Shown here in pieces: positions 14,233-53,400 of a DNA stretch of 64,000 nt. Source of the stretch: a virus (lineage: Duplodnaviria > Caudoviricetes); the IMG/VR virus record IMGVR_UViG_3300031555_001469; one strand, 5' to 3'. How positions within the stretch are numbered: position 1 is the first letter of the stretch; the number at the start of each line of letters is the position of its first letter. Below the pieces are notes generated by a model that was not told the origin of the DNA, did not search any database, and was given only the letters and a program-made list of their open reading frames with translations. The position numbers and the translations under genes are program-made.

Positions 14233-14895
14233 ATGAGTGGGCAATTAGGACCTCAGCAAATTTTACCTGAAGTTTTTAATTATAACATAGGTGGAAATCC
14301 TACTATATTCTCTCCTAATGCTGGATATGAACTTCCATTCTTCCAGACTAGAGATTCTCTCAGAGATACAGAGAGTTATAAAGCATTTTTAGATAATGCA
14401 ATCCATAGATTTAGAAAGAGCAGAACTTATAAAAACTATAAGGGATTCCTTATGAATCTTGGATTAGACCATTGTCAAATGCATGGTAATATATCTTCTG
14501 AAATGGCTAGTATAGAAATGCACCACAATGTATTGACTATATTTGACATTGCATTGATTATTACTGAGCACGTTTTAAATACTACTGGATATATTACTAC
14601 ATTCGATTTAGTTCAGCTCTTAGCTCAAGAGCATATGCAACATCGAGTTCAGTTAGTTATGTTATCATTAACACCTCATCAGGCATTCCATGATGATCCT
14701 CAGTTTTTCATTCCATCTACAATGTGTGTAGGAGATTGGGTTGCATTTCTTGAGAAGTATAAATCTGGAATCACTCAGGATATAGCTTATAAATTATTAT
14801 ATTATATCCGTAGAGAGGAAGAACTTAAAGGAGAACCATTCGATAATAATTTACTTGATTTAAGAGAAAAAATATTAGGATGGGCTCAAGAATAA
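14233..14895 (+). CDS. HNH-like (His-Me finger) protein, paralogue of 23946..24728
   Basis: C...IEMHH..LTIFDI...VMLSLTPHQAFH; late promoter AACAtattaaTA at 14194-14205. Confidence 0.55.
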   Translation: MSGQLGPQQILPEVFNYNIGGNPTIFSPNAGYELPFFQTRDSLRDTESYKAFLDNAIHRFRKSRTYKNYKGFLMNLGLDHCQMHGNISSEMASIEMHHNVLTIFDIALIITEHVLNTTGYITTFDLVQLLAQEHMQHRVQLVMLSLTPHQAFHDDPQFFIPSTMCVGDWVAFLEKYKSGITQDIAYKLLYYIRREEELKGEPFDNNLLDLREKILGWAQE

Positions 14896-14902
14896 AAAAT
14901 AA

Positions 14903-14928
14903 AGAGGGAACCTTAATTGGTTCCCTCT
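14903..14928. terminator. bidirectional terminator
   Basis: AGAGGGAACC-ttaatt-GGTTCCCTCT between convergent genes. Confidence 0.8.
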
Positions 14929-14935
14929 AAATTTT

Positions 14936-15283
14936 TTATGAATTTGAAACGAGACTTTGCAATTCTCTTTCACGAGATGCTCTATCAAACATTTCATCGC
15001 TGAAATCATAATCGACTTCAGCTTTCATATCTCCGTTACCTACTGGTGTAAGAGTGATATCATTAATAATGCGTCCATTAATAATGATACCCGGTTCGAA
15101 TATAGTCTTCCTAGTTATATTCTTCTCTACATAAGAGATGATGATATCATCATCCTGCTTGTAGATATGTAACCAAGTATATCCGTTGCCACCAGACACA
15201 TTAGGACCAACTGTCTCCAATCTGACTGGGGCAACTTTTCCTAATCCCCACCGTAAACCTTCATGATAATATCCAATTGCCAT
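14936..15283 (-). CDS. hypothetical early protein
   Basis: AGGAGG SD; second gene of leader cassette 1. Confidence 0.7.
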   Translation of the reverse strand: MAIGYYHEGLRWGLGKVAPVRLETVGPNVSGGNGYTWLHIYKQDDDIIISYVEKNITRKTIFEPGIIINGRIINDITLTPVGNGDMKAEVDYDFSDEMFDRASRERELQSLVSNS

Positions 15284-15294
15284 GTCAACACCTC

Positions 15295-15489
15295 CTAACG
15301 ATTCATATAAGAAGCAGCCATCATTTGGAATTCTTCTGTCATCTGACGGATCATTGCGGCGTCACGCATAGCCTGTTCGTGAGCCTCATCCATCTTCTGT
15401 TGAATCATTGCGGCGTCACGCATAGCCTGTTCGTGAGCCTCATCCATCTTCTGTTGAATCATAGCCATCTGTTCTTCAAATGTCATCAT
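15295..15489 (-). CDS. small Met/Gln-rich helical protein with exact 18-aa duplication
   Basis: Start reassigned to ATG 15489, 10 nt after AAGGAGG; (MIQQKMDEAHEQAMRDAA)x2. Confidence 0.7.
   Translation of the reverse strand: MMTFEEQMAMIQQKMDEAHEQAMRDAAMIQQKMDEAHEQAMRDAAMIRQMTEEFQMMAASYMNR
15350..15462. repeat. perfect 54-bp tandem repeat (2 copies plus 5 bp)
   Basis: ATCATTGCGGCGTCACGCATAGCCTGTTCGTGAGCCTCATCCATCTTCTGTTGA at 15350 and 15404. Confidence 0.95.
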
Positions 15490-15496
15490 GCCAAAA

Positions 15497-15635
15497 GCGC
15501 CTCCTTGACGCATGTCTTCTTATACCCCCGTAGTATTATAAGCTCTTTGGCTTGGGTAATAGAAGGATAAGATATTATTTCTTCTTATCACTACTATAAT
15601 ATACAAATAAAATATATGAGTTTTACGGATCATAG
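15497..15635 (-). promoter_or_regulatory. conserved early promoter + structured 5' leader, copy 1
   Basis: Homologous to 40735-40874 and 43219-43350; covarying stems; SD held in a hairpin. Confidence 0.8.
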
Positions 15636-24786: not shown

Positions 24787-25395
24787 CCCAGTAAGAGATA
24801 ACTCTTACTGGGATTGTTTTAGGGGATCGGACTGGTTGCTTGGATTCAACCAGTCCTAAGCGTATGAATTTGGTTTTATAGTCAAATAACAATCTGCGCG
24901 ATTGATTGTTATTTTTGTGCTTGGGGTGTGTGGGAGCAGTTGGTGTGTGAACTACTCCCACGTCAATGTTTATAAATAACTAGCAAAAGCTAGATATCTA
25001 TCTATATATTTACTTGAATGTTGTGCTCTGGTTAAAAGCTAACCAGAGCACTATTTTTACTCCTATAATAGGAGATTGTTTCCCAGTCTAGGTAGGAGAC
25101 ACCCTAGACTAGATGGATTGGAAATATATGTTTCAAAATTGAGCTAACCAAGTGTTATTGGAATTTACGAATCATAGGAAAATAGATTAGCCCATCTTAT
25201 TATCTTGAGGAGAGGGCTGATTATTAAATCAGCCCGGGAAGTTATAACGACTAGTGCCTAGTTAGGCACTTAGATAATATCCTTTTTATTGGGCCACTGT
25301 ATCCCTACAGTAGCCCATCCACTAATAATGAATAAAGGAGATCTTCAACTATGATGTTGAAGTAGCGACACCAAGACAAGTCTCATCTTAATATC
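24787..25395 (-). ncRNA. putative large structured non-coding RNA (~610 nt, at least 13 hairpins)
   Basis: Early-type promoter at 25395-25409; ORF-free; GC-enriched stems with G-U pairs that form only on the minus strand; ends in terminator 24787-24812. Confidence 0.7.
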
Positions 25396-25460
25396 ACTAT
25401 TATTATATATGGTTATAAAGGCTTTTAAAATAAAAAATAATAGGGGTGATTAAACTACCC

Positions 25461-25812: not shown

Positions 25813-27117
25813 TTAAATATCTTCAGAAGCAATATCTTCCTGTTTATCTACAGTATTCAAAATAACCTCTTCAGATCCACCATCTTCAGAAACTTCGATT
25901 TCTTCTTCTACGGTATGAATCTTCTTAGTGAGGTGAGAATCTACGTCTGTGTAATCAGGAGATATTCTTGTTCCTAAATACATAGGATCAAGATACTTAT
26001 ATACATTAATAGTATTTAAACTTGCTCTAAAGCTATCCATTACAGCATTATCAATAACATCTGCATACTGCTTAATTTCAGGCTGAGCAGACTTATGAGT
26101 TCTAAGCTGTAAGAACTTCAATAAGTGTCTATACGTGAAAGTCATATAAACCTTACCAGATGCATAGTTCTGAGGGAGATATCCTCTAGCATCTTCTTTA
26201 TCAAGACCCTGTTCTCTAAGATCTTCATATATATCCATTAAAGCATCTCCAAGATCTTTTAAAGTAAAATATTCTTTGAATCGCTCAATAAAATAAGTTT
26301 TATCGGCTTCATACTTAGGTTTGAATTTATCTGGAGAATTGAACCCGTATTCTCTTAAGTCTACATATCTACCAGATTCCTGAGTAATACCATTTCTGTG
26401 TCTTGTGAGCTGCTGTGTAATAATACGGCTCATCTTATCAAATATGATTGTAACAGTCATCATATCCAGAAGATCATCAAATGTAAATACATCATACATC
26501 TTAGATGCTGCTTCATCGATATTATCTACATTGACAATTGTAACTCTATCATCTTCGACTTCTACCTTGTTACAATAGCCAGTAACTTCTGTTTCTTCAT
26601 CTGGATAATAACCGAATGAATGATCATTCATGATTCCATCCTGAATGAAATCTGCAAAATAACACTTATCTAAGTTCATATAGATCTGCGTTCTGATTGT
26701 GTCGAGTACTACATTAGTCATATCAAGCATATTTCTAAATGCTTCCTTATAACCTCTGATACTTCCTCCTACTAAAAGATAAATGTTTTCACCCTTTACT
26801 CTAGCTTTCTTATTAAGATACTGAGCAGCTGACATAAATGCTAAAACACTTTCCATCTCATGAGCAGGAAATACCATCTGAATTACCATATTACTGTGTT
26901 CAATAACAGATTCATGACCGGTTTTAATTCGCTTAGCGATATACTCACATTTCTCTGAGTATGTAGTATATCCCTTTGTTCCCCAGCACACTTTACATGC
27001 ATCCGCCACAATATTAATATTATCATTAGTTAAAATTGTTTCAGCTGCATAAACAGCCTTTCCTTTCACAATCTTTGATTTGTTACTCTTTTTTGTTAAA
27101 GCGTTAAATAAATTCAT
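25813..27117 (-). CDS. thyX: flavin-dependent thymidylate synthase (extended)
   Basis: GHESVIEH, SRIITQQLTRHRNGITQESGRY (ThyX motif), EDARGYLP, LRTHKSAQPEI. Confidence 0.92.
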   Translation of the reverse strand: MNLFNALTKKSNKSKIVKGKAVYAAETILTNDNINIVADACKVCWGTKGYTTYSEKCEYIAKRIKTGHESVIEHSNMVIQMVFPAHEMESVLAFMSAAQYLNKKARVKGENIYLLVGGSIRGYKEAFRNMLDMTNVVLDTIRTQIYMNLDKCYFADFIQDGIMNDHSFGYYPDEETEVTGYCNKVEVEDDRVTIVNVDNIDEAASKMYDVFTFDDLLDMMTVTIIFDKMSRIITQQLTRHRNGITQESGRYVDLREYGFNSPDKFKPKYEADKTYFIERFKEYFTLKDLGDALMDIYEDLREQGLDKEDARGYLPQNYASGKVYMTFTYRHLLKFLQLRTHKSAQPEIKQYADVIDNAVMDSFRASLNTINVYKYLDPMYLGTRISPDYTDVDSHLTKKIHTVEEEIEVSEDGGSEEVILNTVDKQEDIASEDI

Positions 27118-35620: not shown

Positions 35621-36844
35621 CTATCGATATACAATATTTTCTAAAATTATCTTTTGAGTCCAATGTAATTTTATATTGCCTAAATTGAATCGGCCTAAGC
35701 CTGGATATGTATATTTAGAAAAATTACGAATTGCAATTTGCCTAATATCAGGCTCTCTTACCTCCTGAAATAAATCACAAAATCCGTTTTCATAAATTAC
35801 AGGCTTTATGATTAAAATGTCTTCATCTTTATGATAGATCAACATATATCCAAATCTAGTTGAATATACATCATTAAGTTTCAATACCACTTTTGCAATA
35901 TTGGTATTAGAATAATGATATGGCATATGAAATGGCTTAGGTTCATGCATGTGAACAGGGACATGTATAATATTTCTCTCATACCATGACGGTATGAAAG
36001 TTGTTACATTAGCCGGTTCGCCGCTAAACCCTAAGTGGTTTATTTTATATAAACACATAGCATATGCGACTTCTTTTTGATTGCTGTTATATAATTCTCT
36101 CAACAAAATTTTTCTATTAAAAGGATCTCGTATAGCATCAATCTCTTCGATAACTGCTGGAAGAACTTTTGGTGAGATACCTTCTAATATTCTTTTAGAT
36201 AATCTATTGTAAGTTATCTCTTGCAATTTTTGAGGTGATGTACGGAATATATGACCACTACTAGATTCACTACAAATTTTATTAGGTCTATGAGATTCAT
36301 CATATAGTACATCCCTCAATGTAGTATATCTTCCATTATATCGTCTGAGTTCTTGCAAGGCCTTTACTTCAATCTGACGAATTCTTTCTCTAGAAACATT
36401 CATCATCTTGCCGGCTTCCTCAAGATATAGACCTCCCCAATATCTTAATGCTAAGACTCTTTGCTGACGTTCAGTTAGGGTGGATACTGCATTCCTAACA
36501 ATTTCTTTATCAATATTCTGATAAAAATCACATTGTGTAGGATATTCCTTAACTTCAGTGATTCTCTGTGCTATATAAGTTTCTTCGATTTCTTCCATTG
36601 GGAGTTTCTCGAAGCGTTGCATAGCACAGTCTATTGGAAAACTATAGCCGTGCTGCATAAGCATTTTCTTGCAGACTGGTTCCACGATAACCCTGATTGG
36701 TTTTACAGGACCATCGTATTCTAATATTGCAATATATGCTTCCTGCCTCAAGTCTTCTACATCAATTGATGTAGGATTAAATTTGTCGTAGAGTTTATCT
36801 ACAACTTTGTTTGCGGTGTTAATCGCTTCTGGTGTTAAGTTCAT
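35621..36844 (-). CDS. sigma70-like protein (regions 2 and 4) with C-terminal extension
   Basis: EDLRQEAYIAIL (region 2); LTERQQRVLALRY...LEEAGKMMNVSRERIRQIEVKALQELR (region 4 HTH). Confidence 0.8.
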   Translation of the reverse strand: MNLTPEAINTANKVVDKLYDKFNPTSIDVEDLRQEAYIAILEYDGPVKPIRVIVEPVCKKMLMQHGYSFPIDCAMQRFEKLPMEEIEETYIAQRITEVKEYPTQCDFYQNIDKEIVRNAVSTLTERQQRVLALRYWGGLYLEEAGKMMNVSRERIRQIEVKALQELRRYNGRYTTLRDVLYDESHRPNKICSESSSGHIFRTSPQKLQEITYNRLSKRILEGISPKVLPAVIEEIDAIRDPFNRKILLRELYNSNQKEVAYAMCLYKINHLGFSGEPANVTTFIPSWYERNIIHVPVHMHEPKPFHMPYHYSNTNIAKVVLKLNDVYSTRFGYMLIYHKDEDILIIKPVIYENGFCDLFQEVREPDIRQIAIRNFSKYTYPGLGRFNLGNIKLHWTQKIILENIVYR

Positions 36845-39212: not shown

Positions 39213-40331
39213 TTACTTCTTAGAGAATTTAGAAAGAAGATTTAAAATGAAGTTGATTACCTTAGCAATGAATTCACCAAACTTAAACTTGTATGGTTCT
39301 TCAATATCAAGTAACTCATCTTCCTCTGGGTCTTCCTTTTCTTCTAATTCCTTTAATTCAGCTTCAATAACTTCAATCTGAACTTTGAGAGCTTCCATCT
39401 CTGCACCAAGTTCAATCTGAATCTCTTTGAACTTTTCAATGTTATTCATATGAGGAGTCGGATCACCATTCATTTCTCCGTTAAGCATCTTATCTACGAT
39501 CTTCTGTAACTGAGTAATAGTATTACCGATCTCATCAATCTTTTTCTGTAAAGATTCTACTTCAGCTTTATTCTTTTCGAGCCATTCTCTCTTAGCATCA
39601 AGACGGGTATGACCGTCACTAATACCCCAAGTTTCAGCTCTTTCATAGTCATATGGAAGAACACATTTACCCTGGTTACCCCACTCTTCGCCCCAAGAGT
39701 TCTGAACGAGCCAACCATGTTCATTCCAACCATAAATTACCATACAATGATAACCACTAAAATATTTCTTATTCTTGCTAGTATAGAGTACATTAGTATC
39801 AGCCATTAAAACTGCATCTCTGTACCACTTAATACTGAAGATAACAGCATCACCCTTTGTTAAAGCTGCCTTAATAGCATCGTCAGAAGAAATATCATAA
39901 TAAGAAGAAATCTTATTCTGATATGCTTCGGAACTTAACTCAGCCTTAACTTCTTCAAACTGTGTAATTGCCTGCGGTACTTCGATATTATAAGGGAAGC
40001 TTTCATGCTTAGCAGTACCATAGTTAAATACTGCCTTAATAGCATCTCTTATAATCATACCTTCACCCTTATGATCGGAGCCCTCTCTATTACCATAGAT
40101 GGTTCCTGTACTCATAAGAGTATTATCAGTTTCCTGATGATGATTAAACATCTCGATTACTTCAGCTAAAGAATGAGCTACACAGCTTCCTACAGAACCC
40201 TGGTCCTTAATAGGAGGAGTGTAAACTTCATATCTGTCCGGAAACGTAGCACCAGCTACACAAGTTGCCTTGTAATCTCTAACGTCCTTTGGTGATAAAA
40301 GAGCACCTAAACCCTTTTCCATATAAAACAC
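39213..40331 (-). CDS. papain-family (C1) cysteine peptidase with coiled-coil tail
   Basis: DQGSVGSCVAH, GYHCMVIYG, VQNSWGEEWG; late promoter at 40351-40362. Confidence 0.9.
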   Translation of the reverse strand: MFYMEKGLGALLSPKDVRDYKATCVAGATFPDRYEVYTPPIKDQGSVGSCVAHSLAEVIEMFNHHQETDNTLMSTGTIYGNREGSDHKGEGMIIRDAIKAVFNYGTAKHESFPYNIEVPQAITQFEEVKAELSSEAYQNKISSYYDISSDDAIKAALTKGDAVIFSIKWYRDAVLMADTNVLYTSKNKKYFSGYHCMVIYGWNEHGWLVQNSWGEEWGNQGKCVLPYDYERAETWGISDGHTRLDAKREWLEKNKAEVESLQKKIDEIGNTITQLQKIVDKMLNGEMNGDPTPHMNNIEKFKEIQIELGAEMEALKVQIEVIEAELKELEEKEDPEEDELLDIEEPYKFKFGEFIAKVINFILNLLSKFSKK

Positions 40332-40389
40332 CTTCCTTTTCTTTAGATTTTATTTAAATGTTGACGGGTAAAAGAGAAAAAAAATAAAT

Positions 40390-40411
40390 GGGGAGCTATA
40401 TAAGCCTCCCC
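40390..40411 (-). terminator. cassette terminator (near-identical to 42818-42839)
   Basis: GGGGAGCTATATAAGCCTCCCC with a T-run on the minus strand. Confidence 0.75.
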
Positions 40412-40418
40412 CTTTATT

Positions 40419-40727
40419 TTAAGCCCAAGTTTCTCTCGTTCCGGAATAAGCTCCGAAGAAGATATTGAAGAGCACATCAAAATGCTCTTTGGTTAAAAGG
40501 AACTCTGTTCCCGCATAACCTGTTTCCCTCACAATGAGGTGATATACATCCATGTCATTCTTGCCGAAATCTACGGAAATAACTACTTCATCATACTGAT
40601 CATATACTTCAATCAGTGATGGTCTCATACTTAACTTGAGACCCCTGCGTGCTAATTCTCTACCGAATCCGAATACTTCCTTCTTTAACTCCGGCATGTT
40701 TGTAGTGTTAATTTTGCAAATAATCAT
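40419..40727 (-). CDS. hypothetical early protein (leader cassette 2)
   Basis: ORF lying between the conserved leader and the conserved terminator. Confidence 0.7.
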   Translation of the reverse strand: MIICKINTTNMPELKKEVFGFGRELARRGLKLSMRPSLIEVYDQYDEVVISVDFGKNDMDVYHLIVRETGYAGTEFLLTKEHFDVLFNIFFGAYSGTRETWA

Positions 40728-40734
40728 ACGTCCT

Positions 40735-40874
40735 GCGCCCCCTTGACGCCCATGGCTTTTAATACCCCCGTAGTATTATGAGTCTTTGACTCGGATATTA
40801 AAAGGATAAGACATTGTATCCTCTTATCACTACTATAATATACAAGTATTTTTCCTAACTTTTACGGATCATAG
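40735..40874 (-). promoter_or_regulatory. conserved early promoter + structured 5' leader, copy 2
   Basis: Homologous to copies at 15.5 and 43.3 kb. Confidence 0.8.
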
Positions 40875-41361
40875 ATAATGCCCTTTTATGTTCTTCTCTA
40901 AGCTTATAGTAAACTTCTTCAATTGGATAGAATCTACCAGTATTTATAATATCATCTTGATCACATTCTGCTACAAATCCAGTATATTCTCCATCATAGT
41001 ACCCTATAAATACTTCAGTGTAATATCCGTGCCACTGTTCTTCTTCTGGGATATTTTCTTTAACCCATGGATGTACTTTATCTCGTATGAGATAACAACC
41101 ACTATACACCACATCCTTGCAGCATATTCTAACTTCCTCCTTAGTTTCTCTTATAGCAGCATCTAAACTGCTTTCGTTTTCGTTCCAACTACCTCCTGGT
41201 AATTTATATCTGTCCTCTCCAAATGAAATGAAAACTTTGTCGTCTTTAATGACAAGCATTTCTGACCTAGCCCTTACAGGTTTATCATACCCTTTTACAA
41301 TACAACATGCATTGTAGATTCCGTTGATATACTTACCGTATACCTCTTTAACTATACTCAT
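40855..41361 (-). CDS. Nudix hydrolase
   Basis: LPGGSWNENESSLDAAIRETKEEV Nudix box; early promoter at 41378-41392. Confidence 0.85.
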   Translation of the reverse strand: MSIVKEVYGKYINGIYNACCIVKGYDKPVRARSEMLVIKDDKVFISFGEDRYKLPGGSWNENESSLDAAIRETKEEVRICCKDVVYSGCYLIRDKVHPWVKENIPEEEQWHGYYTEVFIGYYDGEYTGFVAECDQDDIINTGRFYPIEEVYYKLREEHKRALSMIRKS

Positions 41362-41430: not shown

Positions 41431-42747
41431 TTAAAATTCTACATTCATATTGAATTTCTTGATAGCTTTGCGAATATTTGTAGCTAATTCTTTTTTATGC
41501 TTATCTTCACAGTGACCATAGAATCTGATAGCAGATCTTACATGTGCCTCATCATTCAATGGGAACTTTCTAAGTTTAGGGATACCAAATGCAGAATCTG
41601 GTAATTCGTTTCTGTCTTTCATATTTAATTTGGCTTCCATGAAGTTAACTTCTCTAGTTGCTAAATAAATATCTATAGCAGCTTTATGATAATTATTAAG
41701 CTTATCATAAACTTCTTCAATTGGATAGAAGTTTCCAAAAGCATACATAGAATCATCTCTATCTACATTTCTGATATATCCAGAATAATTTCCATTATAT
41801 TCTGCAATATAAAGATGATTAATAGACCCATGATATTCGAATGGTAAATTACGTAAATTGTCATTTCTCTTACTAAACCTTTTCATATAAGTCTTTACAT
41901 ACTTTACATTCTTAAGAATGATACGAGCTTCTTCTTTACATTCATTTCTAACCTGCTCTTCTATAGAACAAGATGTTTCAGTTCCGCCACCAGGGATTCT
42001 ATATCCATGTCCATCTTTATTCTTATAAATAAAGACTTTATTTCCATAGAATACAAGAGCCTCACAACGTTCTCTGTAGTTATTATCACCAATAACTATT
42101 AAAGAGTTCCATACCCCATCTGAATCATAAGCACCGTTTAAAGTAGCCTCAATAGGTTCACTGGAGATAATACAATCTTCTAATTCATCGTCTCGATCAA
42201 GTGCCAGTGGCTTTATACAACCATTAGGATCATAGACAATTTCCTCTTTTTTCTTCCATGTATAATGATAATTACTGAAATCTAATACATGAATTTGTCC
42301 TAAATTAATAGGCATCAGGTTACCAGATTTCACATCATAAGTCTGTACCCAGAAATCTCTATCTGTGCCATTATTTCCTTTAGCTTTAATAGCTTCTTCA
42401 ATAGTAGGATAGTATTCGTTTCTATGTACAGTATACATCATCTTATCGGTACGAAGCATATAAGCTTTAAGATTATCGAAGTCTTCTACCCTAGTATCTT
42501 CTAAAACCAAGTTACCAGATTCTTCAACTCCTGTTAAGATATAACTCAAATTTCTCTCTGTATAATAAGATTCAAAGTTTTTCTTATTAATAGTAAGAGG
42601 ATTATTCATCAAAGCATTAGAAGCTTCCTCAGACTGAGTTAATAAATAAACTGCACTACCTTTCTTTTTATCCTTATCAGAAAATGGTAAATAGAAAGGT
42701 CTCTTATAGAGCATATTATCTTTTAATTCTTCTAAACAAATAGCCAT
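41431..42747 (-). CDS. late multidomain protein with Nudix domain
   Basis: IPGGGTETSCSIEEQVRNECKEEA; C-terminal LPDSAFGIP..RKFPLNDEAHVRSAIRFY module; late promoter at 42782-42793. Confidence 0.75.
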   Translation of the reverse strand: MAICLEELKDNMLYKRPFYLPFSDKDKKKGSAVYLLTQSEEASNALMNNPLTINKKNFESYYTERNLSYILTGVEESGNLVLEDTRVEDFDNLKAYMLRTDKMMYTVHRNEYYPTIEEAIKAKGNNGTDRDFWVQTYDVKSGNLMPINLGQIHVLDFSNYHYTWKKKEEIVYDPNGCIKPLALDRDDELEDCIISSEPIEATLNGAYDSDGVWNSLIVIGDNNYRERCEALVFYGNKVFIYKNKDGHGYRIPGGGTETSCSIEEQVRNECKEEARIILKNVKYVKTYMKRFSKRNDNLRNLPFEYHGSINHLYIAEYNGNYSGYIRNVDRDDSMYAFGNFYPIEEVYDKLNNYHKAAIDIYLATREVNFMEAKLNMKDRNELPDSAFGIPKLRKFPLNDEAHVRSAIRFYGHCEDKHKKELATNIRKAIKKFNMNVEF

Positions 42748-42817
42748 TTAAATTACCTCCTTCGGCAATATTATTTTATCTTACTTAATTGTTTCAGGAA
42801 TAAATGAAAAAAATAAA

Positions 42818-42839
42818 GGGGAGCTGTATAAGCCTCCCC
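42818..42839 (-). terminator. cassette terminator (21/22 identical to 40390-40411)
   Basis: GGGGAGCTGTATAAGCCTCCCC. Confidence 0.75.
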
Positions 42840-42845
42840 AGTATT

Positions 42846-43211
42846 TTACTTTTCCCTAAGCTCTGCAAGCCAAGCCTCGGTGCTGTCCCAATTTTCTGGT
42901 TTCATATCCATAATATAGTTAGAATCCTTTAACCATGGATCAAATAAATCTTTAATATCATGAACAGTGATCTCCGCTACCATAGTGATCTGATTAGAGA
43001 CTACCTCTAATCTTATTTTTTCTCTGTTATTAGTATGATATCTATACCATACTCTGACTAATCCATTAGCTGTATTTACTAAACAGCCATCGGTATCTAA
43101 ATTACGAACAGCGGTGAGTAATTTGCGGCCATTACTATCAATACCAATAAATACCTGCCCTAAGCTAAGAGCTGTTGCCTCTGTTATTCTGTTAATTGTC
43201 ATGCTTATCAT
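42846..43211 (-). CDS. hypothetical early protein (leader cassette 3)
   Basis: AAGGAGG SD 10 nt before the ATG. Confidence 0.7.
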   Translation of the reverse strand: MISMTINRITEATALSLGQVFIGIDSNGRKLLTAVRNLDTDGCLVNTANGLVRVWYRYHTNNREKIRLEVVSNQITMVAEITVHDIKDLFDPWLKDSNYIMDMKPENWDSTEAWLAELREK

Positions 43212-43218
43212 ATCTCTT

Positions 43219-43350
43219 GCGCCTCCTTAGCGCCCGTGGCTTCTATAACCCTAAAGAGTATTATAGGTTCCTTGACCCGGATATAGAAGGATAAGATATT
43301 ATTTCTTCTTATCACTATTATAATATACAAGTATATTTGTAAATTTTTAC
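43219..43350 (-). promoter_or_regulatory. conserved early promoter + structured 5' leader, copy 3
   Basis: Homologous to copies at 15.5 and 40.8 kb. Confidence 0.8.
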
Positions 43351-44428: not shown

Positions 44429-47400
44429 ATGGCCTTAAAAGACGTAACTAGCTATATCAAGAATATGGGTAAGTCTGTTGGCTACTCGATGATTGATGTA
44501 TCCAAAGAAACTGCGCCAGCTATGGCAGAGTTTGTGGATACTAATAAGGAATTATTTAAAGACGTATATGCTGCCGTAAAAGATCATAAGAAGTTTATGG
44601 AAAAAACCAAAGCTCTTATCACTGGTAGTAAAGTATATGAAGCCGCTGATGTCGGTCTCAAAGCTATGAAAGAAGATATCAGAACTGGTAACTTCTATAA
44701 CAAAGCTAGAACTGCTGAATTTGAAGCAAAATACAGTGGTTTTAATATGGATGATATGGATGCTGATGATATAGAGTTCAGTATGAAGGACGACGATGAT
44801 GGTAGTTTCGGAAGCGTAGAAATCTCTGATGGAGATAAGTACGTTGGAAGCACTGTTGAATCTGCAGTAAAAGCTTCTGCTGACCTTACATCAACTACTA
44901 TAGCTAGATCTGCTGAATATATGGGTTCTGTTACAAAGGCAAGCACAAGTGCTATTATTGTACAGAATGAAAGATTATTCGGTAATCTTAGTAATAGAAT
45001 TGTAGCTATGCATGGTGGTATAAATGATTTATATAAACTTCATGCTACTGCTATTGAAGCTACAGGTAAGATGAACAAAGAGTTCTATGAGAACACTACG
45101 AATCTTATGCGTGAATCTAATGCTATGCTTAAAGAAATGCTTGAGATGCAGAGAAATATGTACAAGCAGGAACAGCAGAAAGCAAAGGAAAAGACTACGT
45201 ATGGTGATATCGTAGGTAGTAACGGTATGCCAGATCTTAAAGAATATGCTAAAGTTATTGGCAAGAACTTTAAAGGTGCGACTGGTCAGTTTGGTGATAT
45301 GCTCGGTATGTTTGGTAAAGACAGTAATATGCTTGCAATGATGGTAGCGAGTCCATTAATGTTTATACCTAACTTCATAGCAAAAGCTGTTATACCTGCT
45401 GCTGTAGCGTCTAATATGTCAGAACTTGATAAAAGTTTATCTGGCGTATTCGGAACGTCTATAGCAAGATTTAATAAAATGGCTAAAAAAGATAATAGTC
45501 CTATTGGAAGTTTTATAGGAAAATTATTCGGTATTAGCTCTAATGTAAAGGGATCTATAGATACTGGTAATTATAATAAGGGAGCTGTACCTTTTGATGG
45601 AATTACTAGAAAATCTATTATTGAAGTAATCCCAGGTCACCTTAGAAGAATCGAAGCTATTTTATCTGGAATGGGAGATGAAAGAATATACGATTATGAT
45701 AAGGGTAAATGGACCTCTGCAAGTAAGCTTAAATCTCAGTATGATTCTATTGCAGACCAGCACAGAAATAGTGCTTTTTCTGATCTTAGGAATCATGCTA
45801 AGAGATATACAAAGACTGCAGGATTTTCCAAATCTCAGAAAAAGAAATTCGATGATGATTTTGAATTATTCCTGAAGCAGGTATATGAAGAGGGTGGTTA
45901 TCTTCCTTCTAATCTTCGTAAGATGAAGAAAGAAGACTACAATTATAATATATCTGATATGAATTTTGAACTTATTAGAAACATCCTTACTACTATGAAT
46001 AAGGGTGATGTTATGAGTATTGCTGGTAATGTATTAGAAGCTAGAAATAGACATAACAAAACTATTTCTGATTTAGAATTATCTGGATCAGCATTATATA
46101 ACTATCTTTTTGACGGCTCTGATATGAAGAATAGTTATAAGAAATTTAAGAACAAAGATGGAAAAATTACCGGATTTGATACAGCTGTTAATATAGCGAC
46201 TGTTACCGATAATCTTGGTAATAATATTTTCTTCTACCTTCAGAATATGCTTAAGACCATGGAATGGTATAAACTTAACTGGGGAATGGGAGGAGGTTCT
46301 TCTAATTCTAGAAAGTTTAGAAATATTAAGGATTCTGATTGGGATTCGTATGTTAATCATAGCTCTTCTTCTAATAGTAGAAAATATGAAGATGAACGAG
46401 CTTATGATGAAAAAATACGTAAGAGTGTTGCGAATGGTACCTACGTTAACTTTATTGATGCAGATTCCGATGAAGACATGGCTGAAGCTCAGGCAATGCT
46501 TAGAGGTAAAGCTGTTTTAGCTGGAATCAAAGATGAAGATGATAGACGTAAGGAATATAGATCTAAACACTATGGCGCATTTTATAAAGAACAAGATGAC
46601 TTAGATATGGGCAGATATAGTCATGGTAAGCATAATAAAGGTATTGTTACAAGACTTAGAGAAGCTGGTACTTTAATGGATAAATTTAACGTTATCTCTG
46701 AAGGTATTAAGGATTTTGCTAAGTCTCCTGCAACCTTATTAGCATCCGTAATTGATAAGGCTAATCAGTCTATATTTAGTTTCTTTTATCAGGACCCTCT
46801 TTATGATGAAGATGGTAATAAGATAAAAGGATTTATGGATTTAATGACTTCTAAGATGAAGACTAGTTTCGACAAGTTTAATAAATTCTTAGATGATAAG
46901 ATTTTAGATCCGTTAAAGAAGAAACTTGGAGTTGATAGTTTCGGAGATCTCGCTGATAAGTTCCTTGGAATGTTTGGATTAGACAAAAAGGGGCGTAAAG
47001 AAAAGTGGGACAATTTATTTGGCGAGGGTACATTCTTCGGTGATTTTAAGAAAGGTTTCAAAGATGAAATTGATCGTATCACTAAAGAAGTAGCTGAATC
47101 TACAAAAGCCGCTATGAAAGCAACTTATGGTAAAGCTGGTGAAGCTATTTTTGGAACTAATTCTACTTCAAATCCAGTAGTAGATAAGAAACGTCAAGCC
47201 GAACTTGCAAGACAGGATTTATTAAATAGATCTTCTGCAAGAGCAAGAGCATATCTTACAGGTACAGGATATGATGGAGAAGACTTTGAAGCTCGTGTAG
47301 CTGAACTCGCCGGAAGTTCTAAAAATATGAGAATTGTTAGAGCTTGGGAAGATGAGAATGCTGCTAGAGAAAACGAGTATGGTAATTTATTTAATTCTGG

Positions 47401-50400
47401 CGATACATTAGATTCTTGGATTAACTCGGGGTCTATTAAAGACCAGAATGCTAAAAGAAATATGATGGCATATTATGCTAGCAGAGGTCAGGAAGCTTCC
47501 GAATATACTAAAAACGGTAACGTTCTTGACTATATTAATATGATAGATAAAGCACTTCGTACACCTAAAAAAGTTCGTCGTGCTAATAGATTCGTTAATG
47601 AATCTAACTCTCAGGTGGCTAGAGCTACTGGTAGAGAATCTGAAACAGATTCGGAGGGAGACCCCCGACAGCGTGGTATACATGCGTTTGGCGCTAGGAT
47701 GGTAACTAAAGCAGGATTAACTATGATTTCTCCTGGCGAGGCTATTATCCCTGCAAATATGAATCCTTTTAATCCTGACATGGACACTGTTGATATTAAT
47801 CAGCAGTTGGCTAATGAAAAGAGATTAAAGAATAAATTTATAGGTAGTCTTAGAGATAGAATTGCTACTAAAGCTGGCGGTGACGATGGTACAGGTGTTC
47901 CATTAGCAGAATCTAAGTCCTTAGCTCAACAGGCTGGAGGTAAGATTAAGGATGGTGCTACTGAATTAGTTACTCGTATTGTATTAGGTAGTGATAAAGA
48001 AGCTAAAGCATTTAAAGATGCTACTTCTGAAATTACTCAAAAGATTAAAGGTTATCTTCCTACAATGGCTGCTACTGGTCTTATCGGTGGTGGTGTAGGT
48101 TTATTAACTGGTATCGGTGGACCTATCTTAGGTGCAGTAGCTGGTGCCGGTTTAGGTTTACTTCAAAAATCTGATACTTTACAGAATTGGTTATTCGGTG
48201 AAGTTATTGGAGAAGATGAAAACGGAAAAGATATCCGTAAGGGAGGAGTTATCTCCCAGAAGATGCAACAATCTATGCAGAAGTATTTACCAGATTTAAA
48301 GAACTTTGGTATTGCTGGTGCATTGACAGGCTTATTCACTCCATTAGGACCTGTTGGTGGCTTAATGGTTGGATCTGCTCTTGCATATGTAAAGAACAAT
48401 GATAAATTCGCTCAGATATTATACGGCGATGTAATTGGTAAGGATGAGAACGGAAAAGATATCAGAGATGGCGGTATACTTGGTAAGAGCCATATGGATA
48501 AGCTTAAAAAGGCTGCTCCTAATATCTTAGGCGGTGCTGCTATCGGTGCTTTAGCCGGCCCATTCGGTCTTGTAGGAAACTTAGCCTTAGGTTCTGCTAT
48601 AGGCTTGGCTTCGTCTACAGAAGGATTTAAGACTCTTATTTTTGGTGAAGAAGTTGATGGAGAAAGAACTGGTGGTATCGCTGGTGCTCTTCATGATGGC
48701 TTTGTTGAACCAATGAAAGAGTTTGGAAAATCTATTAAAGATGGATTTGATAGTTTTATTAAGGATGATATTTTAAGTCCTTTAGCTGGGGCAATTGAAC
48801 CTTTAACCAAAGAAATAAGTGATATGATTAAGGGTATAGTGATGTTTGTGCCTAATATCTTCACTAAGTTCATGGAAAATAGAATCACGGCTCCATTAGC
48901 AAATTGGATGGAAGAAAGAATATTCAATCCGCTTGGAAAAGCAACCAAGTTTTTATTATCAGCTCCAATTAAATTAGCTAAAACTGTAGTGTCTGCTCCT
49001 TTTAAAGCTGTAGGCGCTTTAGGAAATGCTGTTAGAGGAAAGCATATAGCTAAGGGTAAAGCGGGATACATGACAGCTAGAGAACGTCTCGATTTTAGAG
49101 CAAAGCATAAGGTTGGTATGGCTTTATCTATTCATCGTGACAAGTATAGAGAAGAAGATGAAGTTATTGCTAACTTAGACGCTTCTTCTGTTCAGAAACT
49201 TAAGGATGTACTTGATGCTCAGCTTACTGGAGGAAAGAGTCTTACTCAGAATATCGAAAAGACTAAGAATAAAATCTATGTAGCGGTTGACAAGTACTTT
49301 AAAGATAATGATAAAGTTCTCTTATTGAATAAAGGAACTCGTTCTAAGATACTTAAAGCTATTCAGAAAGAGAATTATAAAGAAGCTGTAACACTTATTC
49401 GTACTGGTAAGGGTAAAGATGGTAGACCTATACCTGAATCAGAAAGAGAAGCTTTATTAGAAGAACTCGTACCTCTTATTGAGACTTATGAGAATCTTAA
49501 AGCTAGAAAGAAACAGCTCGATGATCTTGGTGAAGTTGATACAGTCGCTCTTGCAAGAGAGATGGGATTCAAGAAGTTTAAAGGAACCAAGAAAGATTTA
49601 AAGAAATACTCTGATCTTCTTCGGGGTACTTATAATGCTTTTGAAGCAGAAGGTGCTTATAAGACAGATACTTTGGGTCTTAATGACTCTGAAGATACTG
49701 AAATTGTAAGCAATCAGTCACTTGAAACACAGACAGATCGTATTGTCGAATCTATTGATAATTTAACAGCAATGATTAAAGGTTTAATAGATCCTGATAG
49801 TATAACTGCTGTTAGTGAAGAACATGGTGACACATATGAAAGTAATTTAGCTAGTTTCTCTGAAGCTATAGCTAATGGTAAAGCTGAAGATTTGCGTGCT
49901 GCTAGAGCTAGAGTAACAGATTTAGCTAAAATTTATGGCTTACACGGCGGTCTCTATGGGGACGACGGTGAAGTTAAACATGATATATTAAGCGGTCTTA
50001 TTAATAATGAGGCTGGGTTTGATGCACTTATGAGAGCAAAGAATGATGGAACTAACTTAAGAGTTGGTAATATCGGAAAGTATCTCTATACGTCTCAAAC
50101 TGATAATAAGAATTTCCTTAGATTACAGGAACTTGGTAATTATACTGATCTGCCAGAAGATATGATAGATGCAGTATTAAAGCTCAATAAGTCTCAGTAT
50201 GACAGATTATTTACAGCTGTCTCTAGAGGAGCTAAAGTTGTCGATGCTAATGGAAAATTTGATAAGGATGCTTTTGATGTATTAATTAATTCTGATGGTA
50301 ATTATAATTGGGAGACTAATACAGGAAAAGCATATAAGGGCAAGGTTAACGAAATGGCTCATTATACAGTAAAATCTGTAAGAGCTATTAAGAACGCTTT

Positions 50401-53400
50401 TGCTGGAAGTATAAATAAAACCTTCGATCACTTCTTCATTCAGTTCCAGGGTCTTGGTTTAGTTGGATCAGGTCCAGGAGCTATATGTAGTGAAAAACAG
50501 TTACAATGGTTGTATAAGAATGCTTATTATGAACTGGATAGGGCCGCTTCTGCTAAAGATCCAGAACAGGCATTTATTGAGTTATATAATAAGTATAAGA
50601 ATAAATTACCAAGTACAGCTACGATACTCTCTGCAGGTGAATCTGTAGTTGATGCATCTGAAATAGAAACTCGTGCTTTTGGTAAATTTAAGAACCTTAT
50701 TACCAATAATAAATTTGTTGCCAAATTTAAAAAGATTGGTACTAGTGATTCTTCTGATTCTAAGGAATCTCAGGAAGAAGCTAATAAAAATGCCTTAGAA
50801 AATGAACGTCAGAATGTCATTGCGTCTGGTGTAACTACTGTCGCTGAAGCTATTCATAACTGGAGAGCTAAGTATGACAAAGACCAGAAAGATGAAGAGA
50901 GTGGAAATAACGGTTTCTGGGGCAAACTTCTTAAGGGATTAGTTTTAGGAGGTAGAGTTCTTGGTACTATTGGTATTGGTGCATTCGGTGCTGGTATCTA
51001 CAAGAATTATTTAGAACCTCAAGTTGCTAATATCTTCAATGATCATGTAAAACCTTGGTGGACTGATAAAGCGCTTCCTGCACTGAAAGAGTCTGCTTTT
51101 GGTAAAGCGATTATGAGAGGTATGGATTATATCACTGGTAGCGGTGAATTTGCTGAAACTGGTGGTTTAAGAGGAACCCTTGCAAAGGGATTTGACTGGT
51201 TCTTGGGAAATGGTGAATATAATGGAAACGGTTTAATCGATAAAGCTAAAGGATTTATTATGGATACAATCGTCCCTAACATGTTTACCGGTCTCGAATG
51301 GGTTATAGGAGATTTAGCTCCTAAGATTTTATCAGGCTTATTTACAGCATTACCTAAGTTATTAGGAGCAACTGTAAGAGGTATTGGTAATTTCTTTAAG
51401 TTATCTATCACTAGTCTGCTTAAGCCTAACGTTAAGACTTATGCTGCTGATGATTTTGATATATCGTACGATGGAAATATGCCTACTTCATCTGTAATTT
51501 CTAAGGGTGGTAATAGTAGTGTATTGAGTAGATGGGGCTTAGCTAAGCCAGCCACCTACGATTTTAATGGTACTGTAAGTACATCTGGAGTGAGTTCTTC
51601 TGATTCTGGAAGTATATCTGGTACTGAATATTATGTAAATGAAAGCGGAAGATCTACTGCCGCTGCTGTAGGAGAAGCTGTTACAAGAGGCACATTAACT
51701 AAAGGTGGAGGGCTTATCAAAGCATTTGCTAAGGGCGGATTAGGCAATAAAGTGCTTAAAAACACCGTTGGTAAATTAGGTATTGCCGGAAAAGCGGTTA
51801 GTGGTGCTGTAGGAGGCGGATCTACATTATTAACCAAAATTACATCTGGAGGTAATTCTTTATTAAGAAAAGCTTTAGATAAATTTGGTGTTAACCCTGA
51901 TAAGTGGTTAGGTAATGCTGCTGGTGAAGTAACCGAAGAAGCTGCAGAATCTGCAGTTAAGCAAGGAGCAGAAGCTGCTGCTAAGCAGACTGCTGAAACT
52001 GTTGGTGAAAAGGTTATGAAAGAAACTGCAGAAAATGTTACCGAGAAAGCTGCTACAGGTGCCGGTAAAGGAATCGTTGAGAAAGTAACTAAATTTGTTA
52101 CTGAGAAGCTTACCGGTTTATTTGCTAATGGAACTGTAATTAGCGCAATTAAAAAAGCACTTAAAGCTAGTGGTAAAGAGGCTACTGAAAAAGCTGCAAA
52201 GAAAGCTGCAAAAGAACTCGGTGAAAATATTATTAAGAAATTAGTAAAGAATTTAGCCGAGAAAGCTGCTAAGGCTGCTGCAAAAGCTGTTGCTAAGTTA
52301 AGTGCATCTATAGCATCTGCTGGTATTGTTACAATAGCATTCATCGTTGCAGATTTTGTATCTGGTATGAAAAATGCTGAAACAATATTAGGCGTAACAG
52401 ATGGTGTATCTGTATTAGAAAGATTGTTATGTGGTGTTATTAATGCTATCACAGAGAATCTTACCTTTGGGTTAATTCCTGCCGATACAATAGTTGATAT
52501 TGTTGTAGAATATGCAGCCCCTGCATTAGGTATTGATACTTCTAAAATAACAGCTAGAAGAGAAGCTGCTATTAAAGAAATCGAAGAATGGAACAAAGAA
52601 CACCCTGATGATCAATACGAAAGTGTTGAATCTTATAATAAGAAAGACCGATGGACTACCAAAGCATGGAAGAGTGTTAAAGGTTGGTTCGGTGGTGGAA
52701 GCGATAAGGAAGATGAAAAGCGTTTAAAGGCTTCTTCGTCTACATCATCTTATGCTGCTTCTGCTAGTGGTACTTCTTCTCGTGTTAGAGCTGCAGGTAT
52801 GTATGGCACAGGTTCTGGAAAGCATCTGAGTCAGATTGATCCTAGATATGCTAATATGAGATTTAATAGCTCTGCAGATTCTGCAAGACAGACTATCGGA
52901 GATTCCGGTTGTGGTCCAGTTGCAGCTGCACAAGTTGTTCAGAGATATTCTGGTTATGGAGCTGACCCTGTCAATGCAGCTAGATATGCAATCAAGAATG
53001 GTTATAAGGAGACTAATGGAGGTACTTATCCTGCATTCTTCAGAGACTACTTGGGAGCAAATAATATCAATACTGAATTATTGACAGATATTAGATCCAC
53101 AGTAAATAGAATTGGTTCTGGGTCTCCTGTTATCTTAATGGGTAAGGATAGTTCTAATTCTAAATCTACACCTTACGGTGCGTCACCTCACTATGTGGTG
53201 GCAACAGGATTTGATAAGAGAGGTAATATCATAATTCAAAATCCTGAATCTATGACTCCAGATTCTATATACAATGCTGGTGATGTGTTAAGCAAGTCTA
53301 GTTTAGCAATCGGAACTAGCTATGGTACAGGAAATGGATATAATAAATTAATGGGTATGCCGATGTTTGGAAGAGGTAGAGCTGCTATGACTACTAACAT

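Follow-up and report, generated by a model that had tools for sequence, protein, structure and literature searches.

5'-terminal stabilisers and early-mRNA leaders are found in Escherichia coli ompA, Bacillus subtilis aprE, phage SP82 (the 5' stabiliser) and phage T7 (R0.3), the T7 and SP82 sites being RNase III substrates. In phage T4, the targets of RegA and the GGAG sites cleaved by RegB show that a single factor can address numerous early mRNAs of unrelated genes through sites in or close to the ribosome binding site, while the put sites of phage HK022 lie well downstream of the promoter and serve the read-through of terminators. The PeSL elements of T4-type phages consist of a sigma-70-type promoter and a terminator stem-loop, and their effect is exerted on the DNA, by way of recombination (Arbiol et al., 2010; PMC2839356). 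For the Bacillus jumbo phage AR9, dRNA-seq and primer extension have located the early promoters, which have the consensus AAATATATATTAT-(6N)-G+1 and serve the virion polymerase that the phage injects. The same study notes, without explaining it, a motif in the 5' UTRs of early genes (Lavysh et al., 2017; PMC5312081). Here we describe a repeated element that combines what looks like an AR9-type early promoter with a structured leader RNA, and that precedes small, mutually unrelated ORFs in the genome of a jumbo phage.

An AR9-Like Jumbo Phage with Seven Copies of a Promoter-Leader Module

The stretch of DNA that we analysed (64,000 nt, hereafter the window) corresponds to bases 138598-202597 of a single contig of 229,764 bp with a G+C content of 33.6%. 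It encodes split homologues of the RNA polymerase beta and beta' subunits as well as ThyX. Identity of the beta' fragment to its counterparts in phiR1-37, AR9/PBS1 and the Staphylococcus jumbo phages is 29-32%, and IMG/VR relatives reach 39-58% in the beta' protein. Based on the split polymerase genes and on the beta' similarity, we assign this virus, known from metagenomes only, to the AR9-like jumbo phages with split multisubunit RNA polymerases. The ThyX domain forms part of the C-terminal portion of a 434-aa protein (25813-27117, -). Other gene products of the window include two NUDIX proteins, one of them fused to DUF6582, and a homologue of papain-family peptidases (40855-41361, 41431-42747 and 39213-40331, all -), as well as a protein of 3,443 aa encoded by a single ORF (44429-54760, +).

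The initial annotation had reported three copies of a leader element on the minus strand (15497-15606, 40735-40846 and 43219-43331), and all three were recovered at these positions (copies 1, 2 and 3, at 15.5, 40.7 and 43.3 kb; Table 1). A 24-nt pattern spanning promoter and P1 has exactly three matches in the window versus 0 expected from 100 shuffles. The count of three is thus correct for the window, but not for the whole genome, where a search with a profile of the three window copies revealed four further copies at 40177 (-), 49148 (-), 97222 (-) and 215604 (+), hence seven. With a covariance model these seven score between 113 and 131 bits, the next best site in the genome obtaining 16 bits, and their mean column identity is 81%.

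Table 1. Positions of the leader-bearing cassettes and associated features (window coordinates unless otherwise indicated; R1, covariance model R1)
Feature	Position	Strand	Remarks
Copy 1, upstream promoter element CTATGATCCGTAAA	15622-15635	-	about -46 to -33; in 4 of 7 copies and in L164
Copy 1, early promoter, TTG + TATATTAT + N6 (AGTAGT)	15590-15606	-	predicted start G at 15589; match to AR9 virion RNA polymerase consensus
Copy 1, P1, 5'-terminal hairpin GAUAAGA-loop-UCUUAUC	15566-15589	-	in single folds and in the consensus fold
Copy 1, P2-P3-J domain, with short linker at its end	15512-15565	-	P2 is the outer stem; P3 has 4 bp
Copy 1, P3 loop CAAAGA	15544-15549	-	3' bulge AUAAUACUAC from 15539
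Copy 1, P4, GC hairpin over Shine-Dalgarno	15497-15511	-	dG -6.8 kcal/mol when folded alone; AAGGA in loop
Cassette 1, first ORF (64 aa)	15295-15489	-	leader to ATG 100 nt; no Pfam or PHROG match
Cassette 1, second ORF	14936-15283	-	followed by terminator near 14895-14927
Copy 2, upstream element and promoter	40829-40874	-	upstream element 40861-40874; promoter 40835-40845 plus N6; predicted start 40828
Copy 2, leader RNA	40735-40828	-	P1 40805-40828; P2-P3-J 40750-40804; P4 40735-40749; 122.6 bits (R1)
Copy 2, ORF (102 aa) and intrinsic terminator	40377-40727	-	ORF 40419-40727; terminator 40377-40412
Copy 3, promoter, TTG + TATATTAT + AATAGT	43314-43330	-	predicted start 43313
Copy 3, leader RNA	43219-43313	-	P1 43290-43313; P2-P3-J 43234-43289; P4 43219-43233; loop CAAGGA, bulge variant AUAAUACUCUUUA; 120.2 bits (R1)
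Copy 3, ORF (121 aa) and intrinsic terminator	42807-43211	-	ORF 42846-43211; terminator 42807-42839, nearly identical to that of copy 2
Recurring near-identical intrinsic terminators	14895-14927, 40377-40412, 42807-42839; genome 215859, 33807		
Second promoter class, predicted starts	8570, 21277, 25739, 38526	-	genome 147167, 159874, 164336, 177123
Variant leader of relative G001	L016, 1501-1619	-	
Variant leader of relative G001	L019, 1501-1606	+	

Promoters and Predicted Transcription Starts

All copies are headed by TTG-TATATTAT-A(G/A)TAGT-G, in which the AR9-type early core TATATTAT-N6-G is exact in six of the seven, the seventh reading CATATTAT. By their sequence, the seven promoters belong to the AR9 early class, and because they match the AR9 consensus, the predicted first base of the transcript is the G that opens P1; we infer this start site and the early timing of the seven cassettes by analogy with AR9. 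Beyond the core, the seven copies have in common the TTG at -17 to -15 and a GTAAA near -35 (the full CTATGATCCGTAAA being present in four), and we therefore regard them as a promoter subclass. A 407-aa protein with a sigma-70 region 4 domain (E 6.5e-17) is encoded at 35621-36844 (-) of this phage, which also encodes its own multisubunit RNA polymerases; this protein might be the reader of the GTAAA element at the leader-bearing promoters.

A relaxed scan of the genome (TATATTAT with at most one mismatch, N6-G, a Shine-Dalgarno sequence and an ORF) returned 55 sites, approximately 30 of which have the exact core. Most leaders at the exact-core sites measure 13-70 nt, typically around 30 nt, and often read GAATAAAATAAAGGAGG. 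The proposal that the element defines an early regulon is not borne out: it marks only seven of about 30 or more promoters with the same core, most of the others being followed by short, unstructured leaders. These others make up a second, more numerous promoter class (TATATTAT-N6-G, with leaders such as GAATAAAATAAAGGAGG; examples in Table 1) that is very similar to the early promoters of AR9, whose early leaders are also short and start with GAAT or GATA.

Among the 14 exact-core sites with a leader of at least 35 nt, eight have a hairpin beginning at +1 or +2, and five of these eight are unrelated to the leader family; with a frame offset of 12 nt the same count is 0. The hairpins in unrelated leaders lend indirect support to the start-site assignment, and early-type transcripts of this phage seem generally to begin with a hairpin. 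Unrelated leaders with a hairpin located exactly at the predicted +1 are found at genome positions 229123 (-), 175919 (-, window 37322), 125000 (-), 112163 (-) and 37467 (-).

Fold and Covariation of the Leader

A consensus fold computed with RNAalifold on the seven copies recovers the P1 (GATAAGA/TCTTATC), P2 and P3 stems of the initial annotation, P3 enclosing CAA(A/G)GA, and the segment that had been described as invariant is indeed constant (AATACT). In all copies P1 (GAUAAGA/UCUUAUC in the RNA) begins at the predicted +1, and its stem sequence is identical in all nine members of the family, two of which come from other phages (see below). P2, of about 11 bp, abuts P1 without any spacer and carries P3, which consists of 4 bp closed by the hexaloop CAA(A/G)GA, with a bulge of 10 nt on the 3' side (AUAAUACUAC, or AUAAUACUCUUUA in two copies). 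After a linker of 5-7 nt follows P4 (GCGY-loop-GGCGC), and the ATG is located 7-8 nt downstream of P4, giving a leader of 100-102 nt in all seven copies. Folded alone, P4 has a free energy of -6 to -7.5 kcal/mol and exposes AAGGA in its loop while GG and CGC are held in the stem, so that the Shine-Dalgarno sequence, initially described as sequestered, is trapped only in part. Going by these computed folds, P4 would damp initiation and not block it. The z-scores of single-sequence folding are modest (-0.2 to -2.6).

We found no conserved alternative pairing that links the P2/P3 domain to the Shine-Dalgarno hairpin, P4 being self-contained, and several other candidate features of the leader were discarded. 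The UCCUU in the 5' strand of P2, a potential anti-Shine-Dalgarno sequence, is missing from the L164 member; a pairing of the N6 segment (GUAGU) with ACUAC of the bulge, which variant L019 seemed to support, is refuted by L399, where N6 reads TATAAC and the bulge is unchanged. The bulge is not a sigma-70 -10 box (TATAAT) either, as position 2 is not kept (CGTAAT in one copy), a -35 box is lacking and the invariance extends past the hexamer. An upstream ORF starting in the CAUG linker is contradicted by three copies without ATG and by differing frames, and P4 does not have the conserved U-run of an attenuator or terminator.

Covariation was assessed on an alignment of nine sequences (the seven paralogues of this genome, L164 and L399) that was guided by the model and fitted to it. 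Standard pairs occupy 95.1% of the 206 pair cells, versus 37-52% when partners are slid by 1-3 columns. Both sides have changed in 11 of the 24 pairs (26 cells), all of them in P2 and P3, and none of 500 shuffles reaches the observed values, although these shuffle statistics overstate independence, seven of the nine sequences being paralogues from one genome. Every position of P3 shows three or four pair types at 100% pairing, and there are ten G-U cells versus a single C-A cell, which places the structure on the sense strand. The covariation proposed initially is hence borne out for P2 and P3, but not for P1 and the Shine-Dalgarno hairpin, which are invariant within the genome and on which covariation cannot speak. 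Inside the covarying P2/P3 helices, the bulge and the hexaloop are invariant.

The Rfam 15 scan of the whole window at gathering score gave 0 matches, and with E values up to 10 nothing overlapped the P1-P3 domains of the three window copies, in line with the earlier statement that the leader is not recognisable as a known riboswitch or ribozyme. A single weak match, to a eukaryotic snoRNA model, extends into P4 of copy 1 and is attributable to chance (E 7.1, mostly over the ORF).

Small ORFs Between Repeated Ends

The ORFs behind the seven leaders encode 49, 64, 71, 81, 102, 118 and 121 aa. They had been called unrelated on the basis of the three window copies, and this extends to all seven, which show no similarity to each other. 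None of them has a family match in Pfam or PHROG, and a look-up of two of them in the ESM Atlas was uninformative. A strong intrinsic terminator directly follows the ORF in five of the seven cassettes and the second ORF in that of copy 1, and terminators are shared pairwise, between copies 2 and 3 and between copy 1 and the copy at genome position 215604. As near-identical terminators thus recur at different cassettes, both ends of the cassette are repeated modules.

Just past the terminators of cassettes 3 and 2 we found AACA-N6-TA motifs (42773-42793 and 40346-40362, both -), which precede the NUDIX/DUF6582 gene and the papain-like peptidase gene, and which match the consensus of AR9 late promoters, those of the non-virion RNA polymerase (PMC5312081). 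An extended 21-nt late-promoter pattern is not enriched in the window (7 found versus 8.9 expected). With an early-type promoter and leader at one end, a terminator at the other and a late-type motif beyond, these units appear as insulated early cassettes set between other genes.

Elsewhere in the window, a stretch of approximately 610 nt without ORF (24787-25409, -) reaches from an early-type promoter (TATATAATAATAGTG, 25395-25409) to a terminator, with many hairpins and a copy of the upstream motif (CTATGATTCGTAAA, 25164-25177), and likely corresponds to a long non-coding RNA.

Members and Variants in Other Phages

Outside this genome, among the matches listed from viral and metagenome collections, we found two further members of the family (L164 and L399) and two rearranged variants. 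L164 is a metagenome contig of 1,065 bp carrying a 104-nt leader (86 bits), an ORF of 53 aa and a terminator. Weak similarity between this ORF and the one behind copy 1 makes it probable that L164 is the orthologous cassette of a close relative. L399, an IMG/VR fragment of 32.8 kb, carries a 108-nt leader, an ORF of 206 aa and a terminator, and scores 37.5 bits with covariance model R1 and 65.7 bits with R2. The P1 stem, CAANGA and AUAAUACUAC are identical to the letter in L164 and L399, and P2 and P3 are rewritten with compensation. L399 lacks the GC hairpin; a different helix again pairs GGAGG, this time to an upstream ACCUC.

A relative with 58% identity in beta' (G001) yielded two weaker matches of 32 and 22 bits (L016 and L019; Table 1). 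Both share the promoter type or its start region and a 5' hairpin, followed by AU(A/G)AU(A/G)CUA, and both have the same GC hairpin over the Shine-Dalgarno sequence, then a small ORF and a terminator. Seven nucleotides of the apical loop are complementary to the seven nucleotides before the Shine-Dalgarno hairpin, and the complementary pairs differ between the copies (AGCUUCU/AGAAGCU versus CCUGUAC/GUACAGG), the model aligning this pairing with P2. The variants may therefore form an H-type pseudoknot, a lead drawn from two sequences. A scan for more leaders of the G001 type returned only unrelated promoter-like sites, and the Shine-Dalgarno hairpin pattern is absent from two other relatives (G002 and G003).

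The family is rare, with four phage records among the matches listed from 29 related jumbo-phage records and pattern scans. Model R2 found nothing further in the 29 records, and blastn against GenBank phages found no homologue. Loose pattern scans of collections of genome contigs and viral contigs gave almost only chance hits among the matches listed, and a stricter pattern retrieved only L399. In two related jumbo phages (L072 and L085, IMG/VR 3300045988_135244 and _134186) we observed a different multi-copy leader, behind TTG-TATATTATAATAGT-G, that has a long 5' hairpin with a stem covarying between copies, and then AUAUCCCCUAAUGAAAGGAG.

Possible Function of the Leader

On balance, we lean towards a leader RNA acting in cis: one trans factor common to all copies, probably a protein, would recognise the conserved domain and thereby set the stability and translation of a subset of early mRNAs. 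The repeat would then be the head of a modular early-gene cassette in an AR9-like jumbo phage, its DNA part being a promoter for the AR9-type virion RNA polymerase (TATATTAT-N6-G(+1)) extended by TTG and GTAAA. In the transcript, P1 at the first transcribed base would most likely shield the 5' end from 5'-end-dependent RNases; P2 and P3 would form a coaxial stack whose drifting stems present the fixed 10-nt bulge AUAAUACUAC and the hexaloop CAANGA as a surface for a specific partner; and P4, which presents AAGGA in the loop and pairs the remainder of the Shine-Dalgarno sequence, would have to be melted by the 30S subunit for initiation. A single trans factor, whether phage-made, virion-borne or from the host, would bind the P2/P3 module on all seven mRNAs and, via the adjacent Shine-Dalgarno hairpin and/or the access of RNases, raise or shut off translation and stability together, so that a subset of small early ORFans would obtain its own post-transcriptional programme. 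That the stems drift while the unpaired nucleotides stay fixed, across phages with different cassette ORFs, argues for recognition of the P2-P3-bulge surface by a specific partner and for a role of the module beyond stabilisation, and we infer the existence and nature of the trans factor from this pattern of sequence conservation. A search of the genome for homologues of CsrA and RegA gave none above the cut-off, and no candidate binding protein was found. The initial reading as a phage cis-regulatory translation switch thus fits as far as a phage promoter and structured 5' leader before unrelated genes are concerned, whereas the switch itself finds no conserved switching pairing.

The Shine-Dalgarno hairpin, at merely -6 to -7.5 kcal/mol, is weak enough for the ribosome to open it unaided, so that the leader might only tune expression, without a trans factor. 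In that case the leader would be constitutive: the cassette would supply only a strong promoter, a 5' hairpin for protection and a ribosome binding site of fixed, moderately reduced strength, and its repetition would stem from duplication and recombination in the manner of PeSL. The repetition of promoter and leader and the pairwise sharing of terminators around unrelated ORFans agree with this, as do the +1 hairpins common in other leaders of the phage and the precedent of T4-type phages, in which repeated regulatory cassettes flanking ORFans mediate gene shuffling (PMC2839356). Yet a generic stabiliser leaves unexplained why the 10-nt bulge and the hexaloop are identical in L399 and L164 amid rewritten stems, and why some 55 nt of extra structure are maintained when most same-core leaders measure 13-70 nt, typically around 30, and we consider this explanation unlikely. 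Invariant unpaired nucleotides within covarying helices, next to a structured Shine-Dalgarno sequence, would also be expected of a riboswitch, with the P2-P3-bulge as the aptamer for a small molecule or ion whose binding alters access to the Shine-Dalgarno sequence; since no known family matches, it would be a new class. The absence of an alternative pairing between the domain and P4 and the unrelated ORFan cargo, which is not a metabolic gene set, weigh against a classical riboswitch: no mutually exclusive pairing to the Shine-Dalgarno hairpin is conserved, the sole anti-Shine-Dalgarno candidate (UCCUU) being gone in L164, the domain, a plain hairpin with a bulge, offers little from which a pocket could form, and its topology is rearranged in G001. 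We give this possibility little weight.

An equally small chance goes to a role of the RNA beyond its own translation, either in cis, through put-like antitermination or pausing, or as a released small RNA that would serve as a decoy or sponge for a host factor. The position of two stem-loops right behind an early promoter, P1 and P2 following each other without a spacer, is suggestive of the former, and 5'UTR-derived small RNAs are documented in the jumbo phage 201phi2-1 (PMC11512511); seven strong copies would moreover produce much leader RNA. However, five of the seven cassettes terminate right after the small ORF and two are followed by late-type promoters, therefore read-through is not obviously wanted. 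A conserved U-run from which a small RNA might be released is lacking past P4, the genome showed no complementary target (the search for an antisense partner of the bulge gave chance matches in coding DNA only), and the constant spacing to the ATG ties the module to translation. The asymmetric internal loop, invariant and flanked by helices, also bears a superficial likeness to phage RNase III sites and small ribozymes. That the bulged hairpin cleaves itself, or is a dedicated target of RNase processing, is nevertheless highly improbable, as models of hammerhead, twister, pistol, hatchet and other ribozymes are unmatched even at E = 10, and P2 plus P3 of L399, with only approximately 9 bp, are too short for RNase III. 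With the riboswitch, the put-like antiterminator and the ribozyme all disfavoured, a common trans factor is the explanation that we favour. In a bolder version, to which we assign a low probability, the P2-P3 domain would serve some of the immediate-early mRNAs of this virion-polymerase phage as a dedicated address tag or as a sensor: it would be either a new class of aptamer for a host signal or a site at which a factor from the virion or the host docks and so permits the messages to be translated, protected or localised in the first minutes of infection; if so, the G001 variants would show the same surface through a permuted, pseudoknotted topology.

Jumbo phages with their own RNA polymerases run early expression independently of the host, and post-transcriptional control in them is almost unexplored. 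A covarying domain on seven unrelated early ORFan messages constitutes a testable handle on such control, and the leader could be used as bait for the factor that reads it. The small proteins of the cassettes also form a candidate regulon, with possible roles in taking over the host or countering its defences, and the compact arrangement of promoter, leader and terminator may explain how such phages acquire and express new genes.

Comparison with Known Systems

The 5' stabilisers place a hairpin on or very close to the 5' end of highly expressed messages, a position that P1 would share if transcripts start at the predicted +1, and like the leader they recur in phage early transcripts; unlike it, they do not possess a further conserved domain whose bulge and loop are invariant, and compared to the RNase III substrates of T7 and SP82 the leader fold in L399 is too short. 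The targets of RegA and RegB resemble our proposal in that one factor serves many unrelated early mRNAs (the factor being proposed in our case) and in the display of GGAG in an accessible loop, but they are short and poorly structured, and the genome has no RegA homologue. The put sites of HK022, compared by description, likewise present two stem-loops 0-1 nt apart on early transcripts, with more than one copy of them in each genome, whereas the units found here are short and terminated.

The structured, 5'UTR-derived RNAs of the jumbo phage 201phi2-1, one of them conserved among giant phages, are comparable in origin, but are single-locus products of premature termination upstream of conserved late genes and not a multi-copy leader on early ORFans (PMC11512511). 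The PeSL of T4-type phages are similar in that near-identical early-promoter modules and repeated terminators flank scattered small ORFans (Arbiol et al., 2010; PMC2839356). Here, in contrast, the promoter is of the AR9 type and the stem-loops behind it would be part of a transcribed leader and not of a terminator, as no U-run is conserved; a long transcribed leader with covarying stems implies that selection acts on the RNA, unlike in PeSL. The closest counterpart is AR9 itself, a phage of the same type with two split multisubunit RNA polymerases (about 30% identical), whose early promoters have the same core TATATTAT-(6N)-G+1 and a purine-rich initial transcript (GAAT or GATA) (Lavysh et al., 2017; PMC5312081). 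The AR9 early leaders that we examined are without this fold, and the TTG, the upstream GTAAA and the structured leader of 100 nt are specific to the present lineage. For the RNA domain itself we know of no relative, and in the literature searched no jumbo phage is described as using such a domain in several copies ahead of early ORFans, while the AR9-class promoter, the PeSL-like cassette logic, and the 5' hairpins and operators on phage early messages are of kinds already known.
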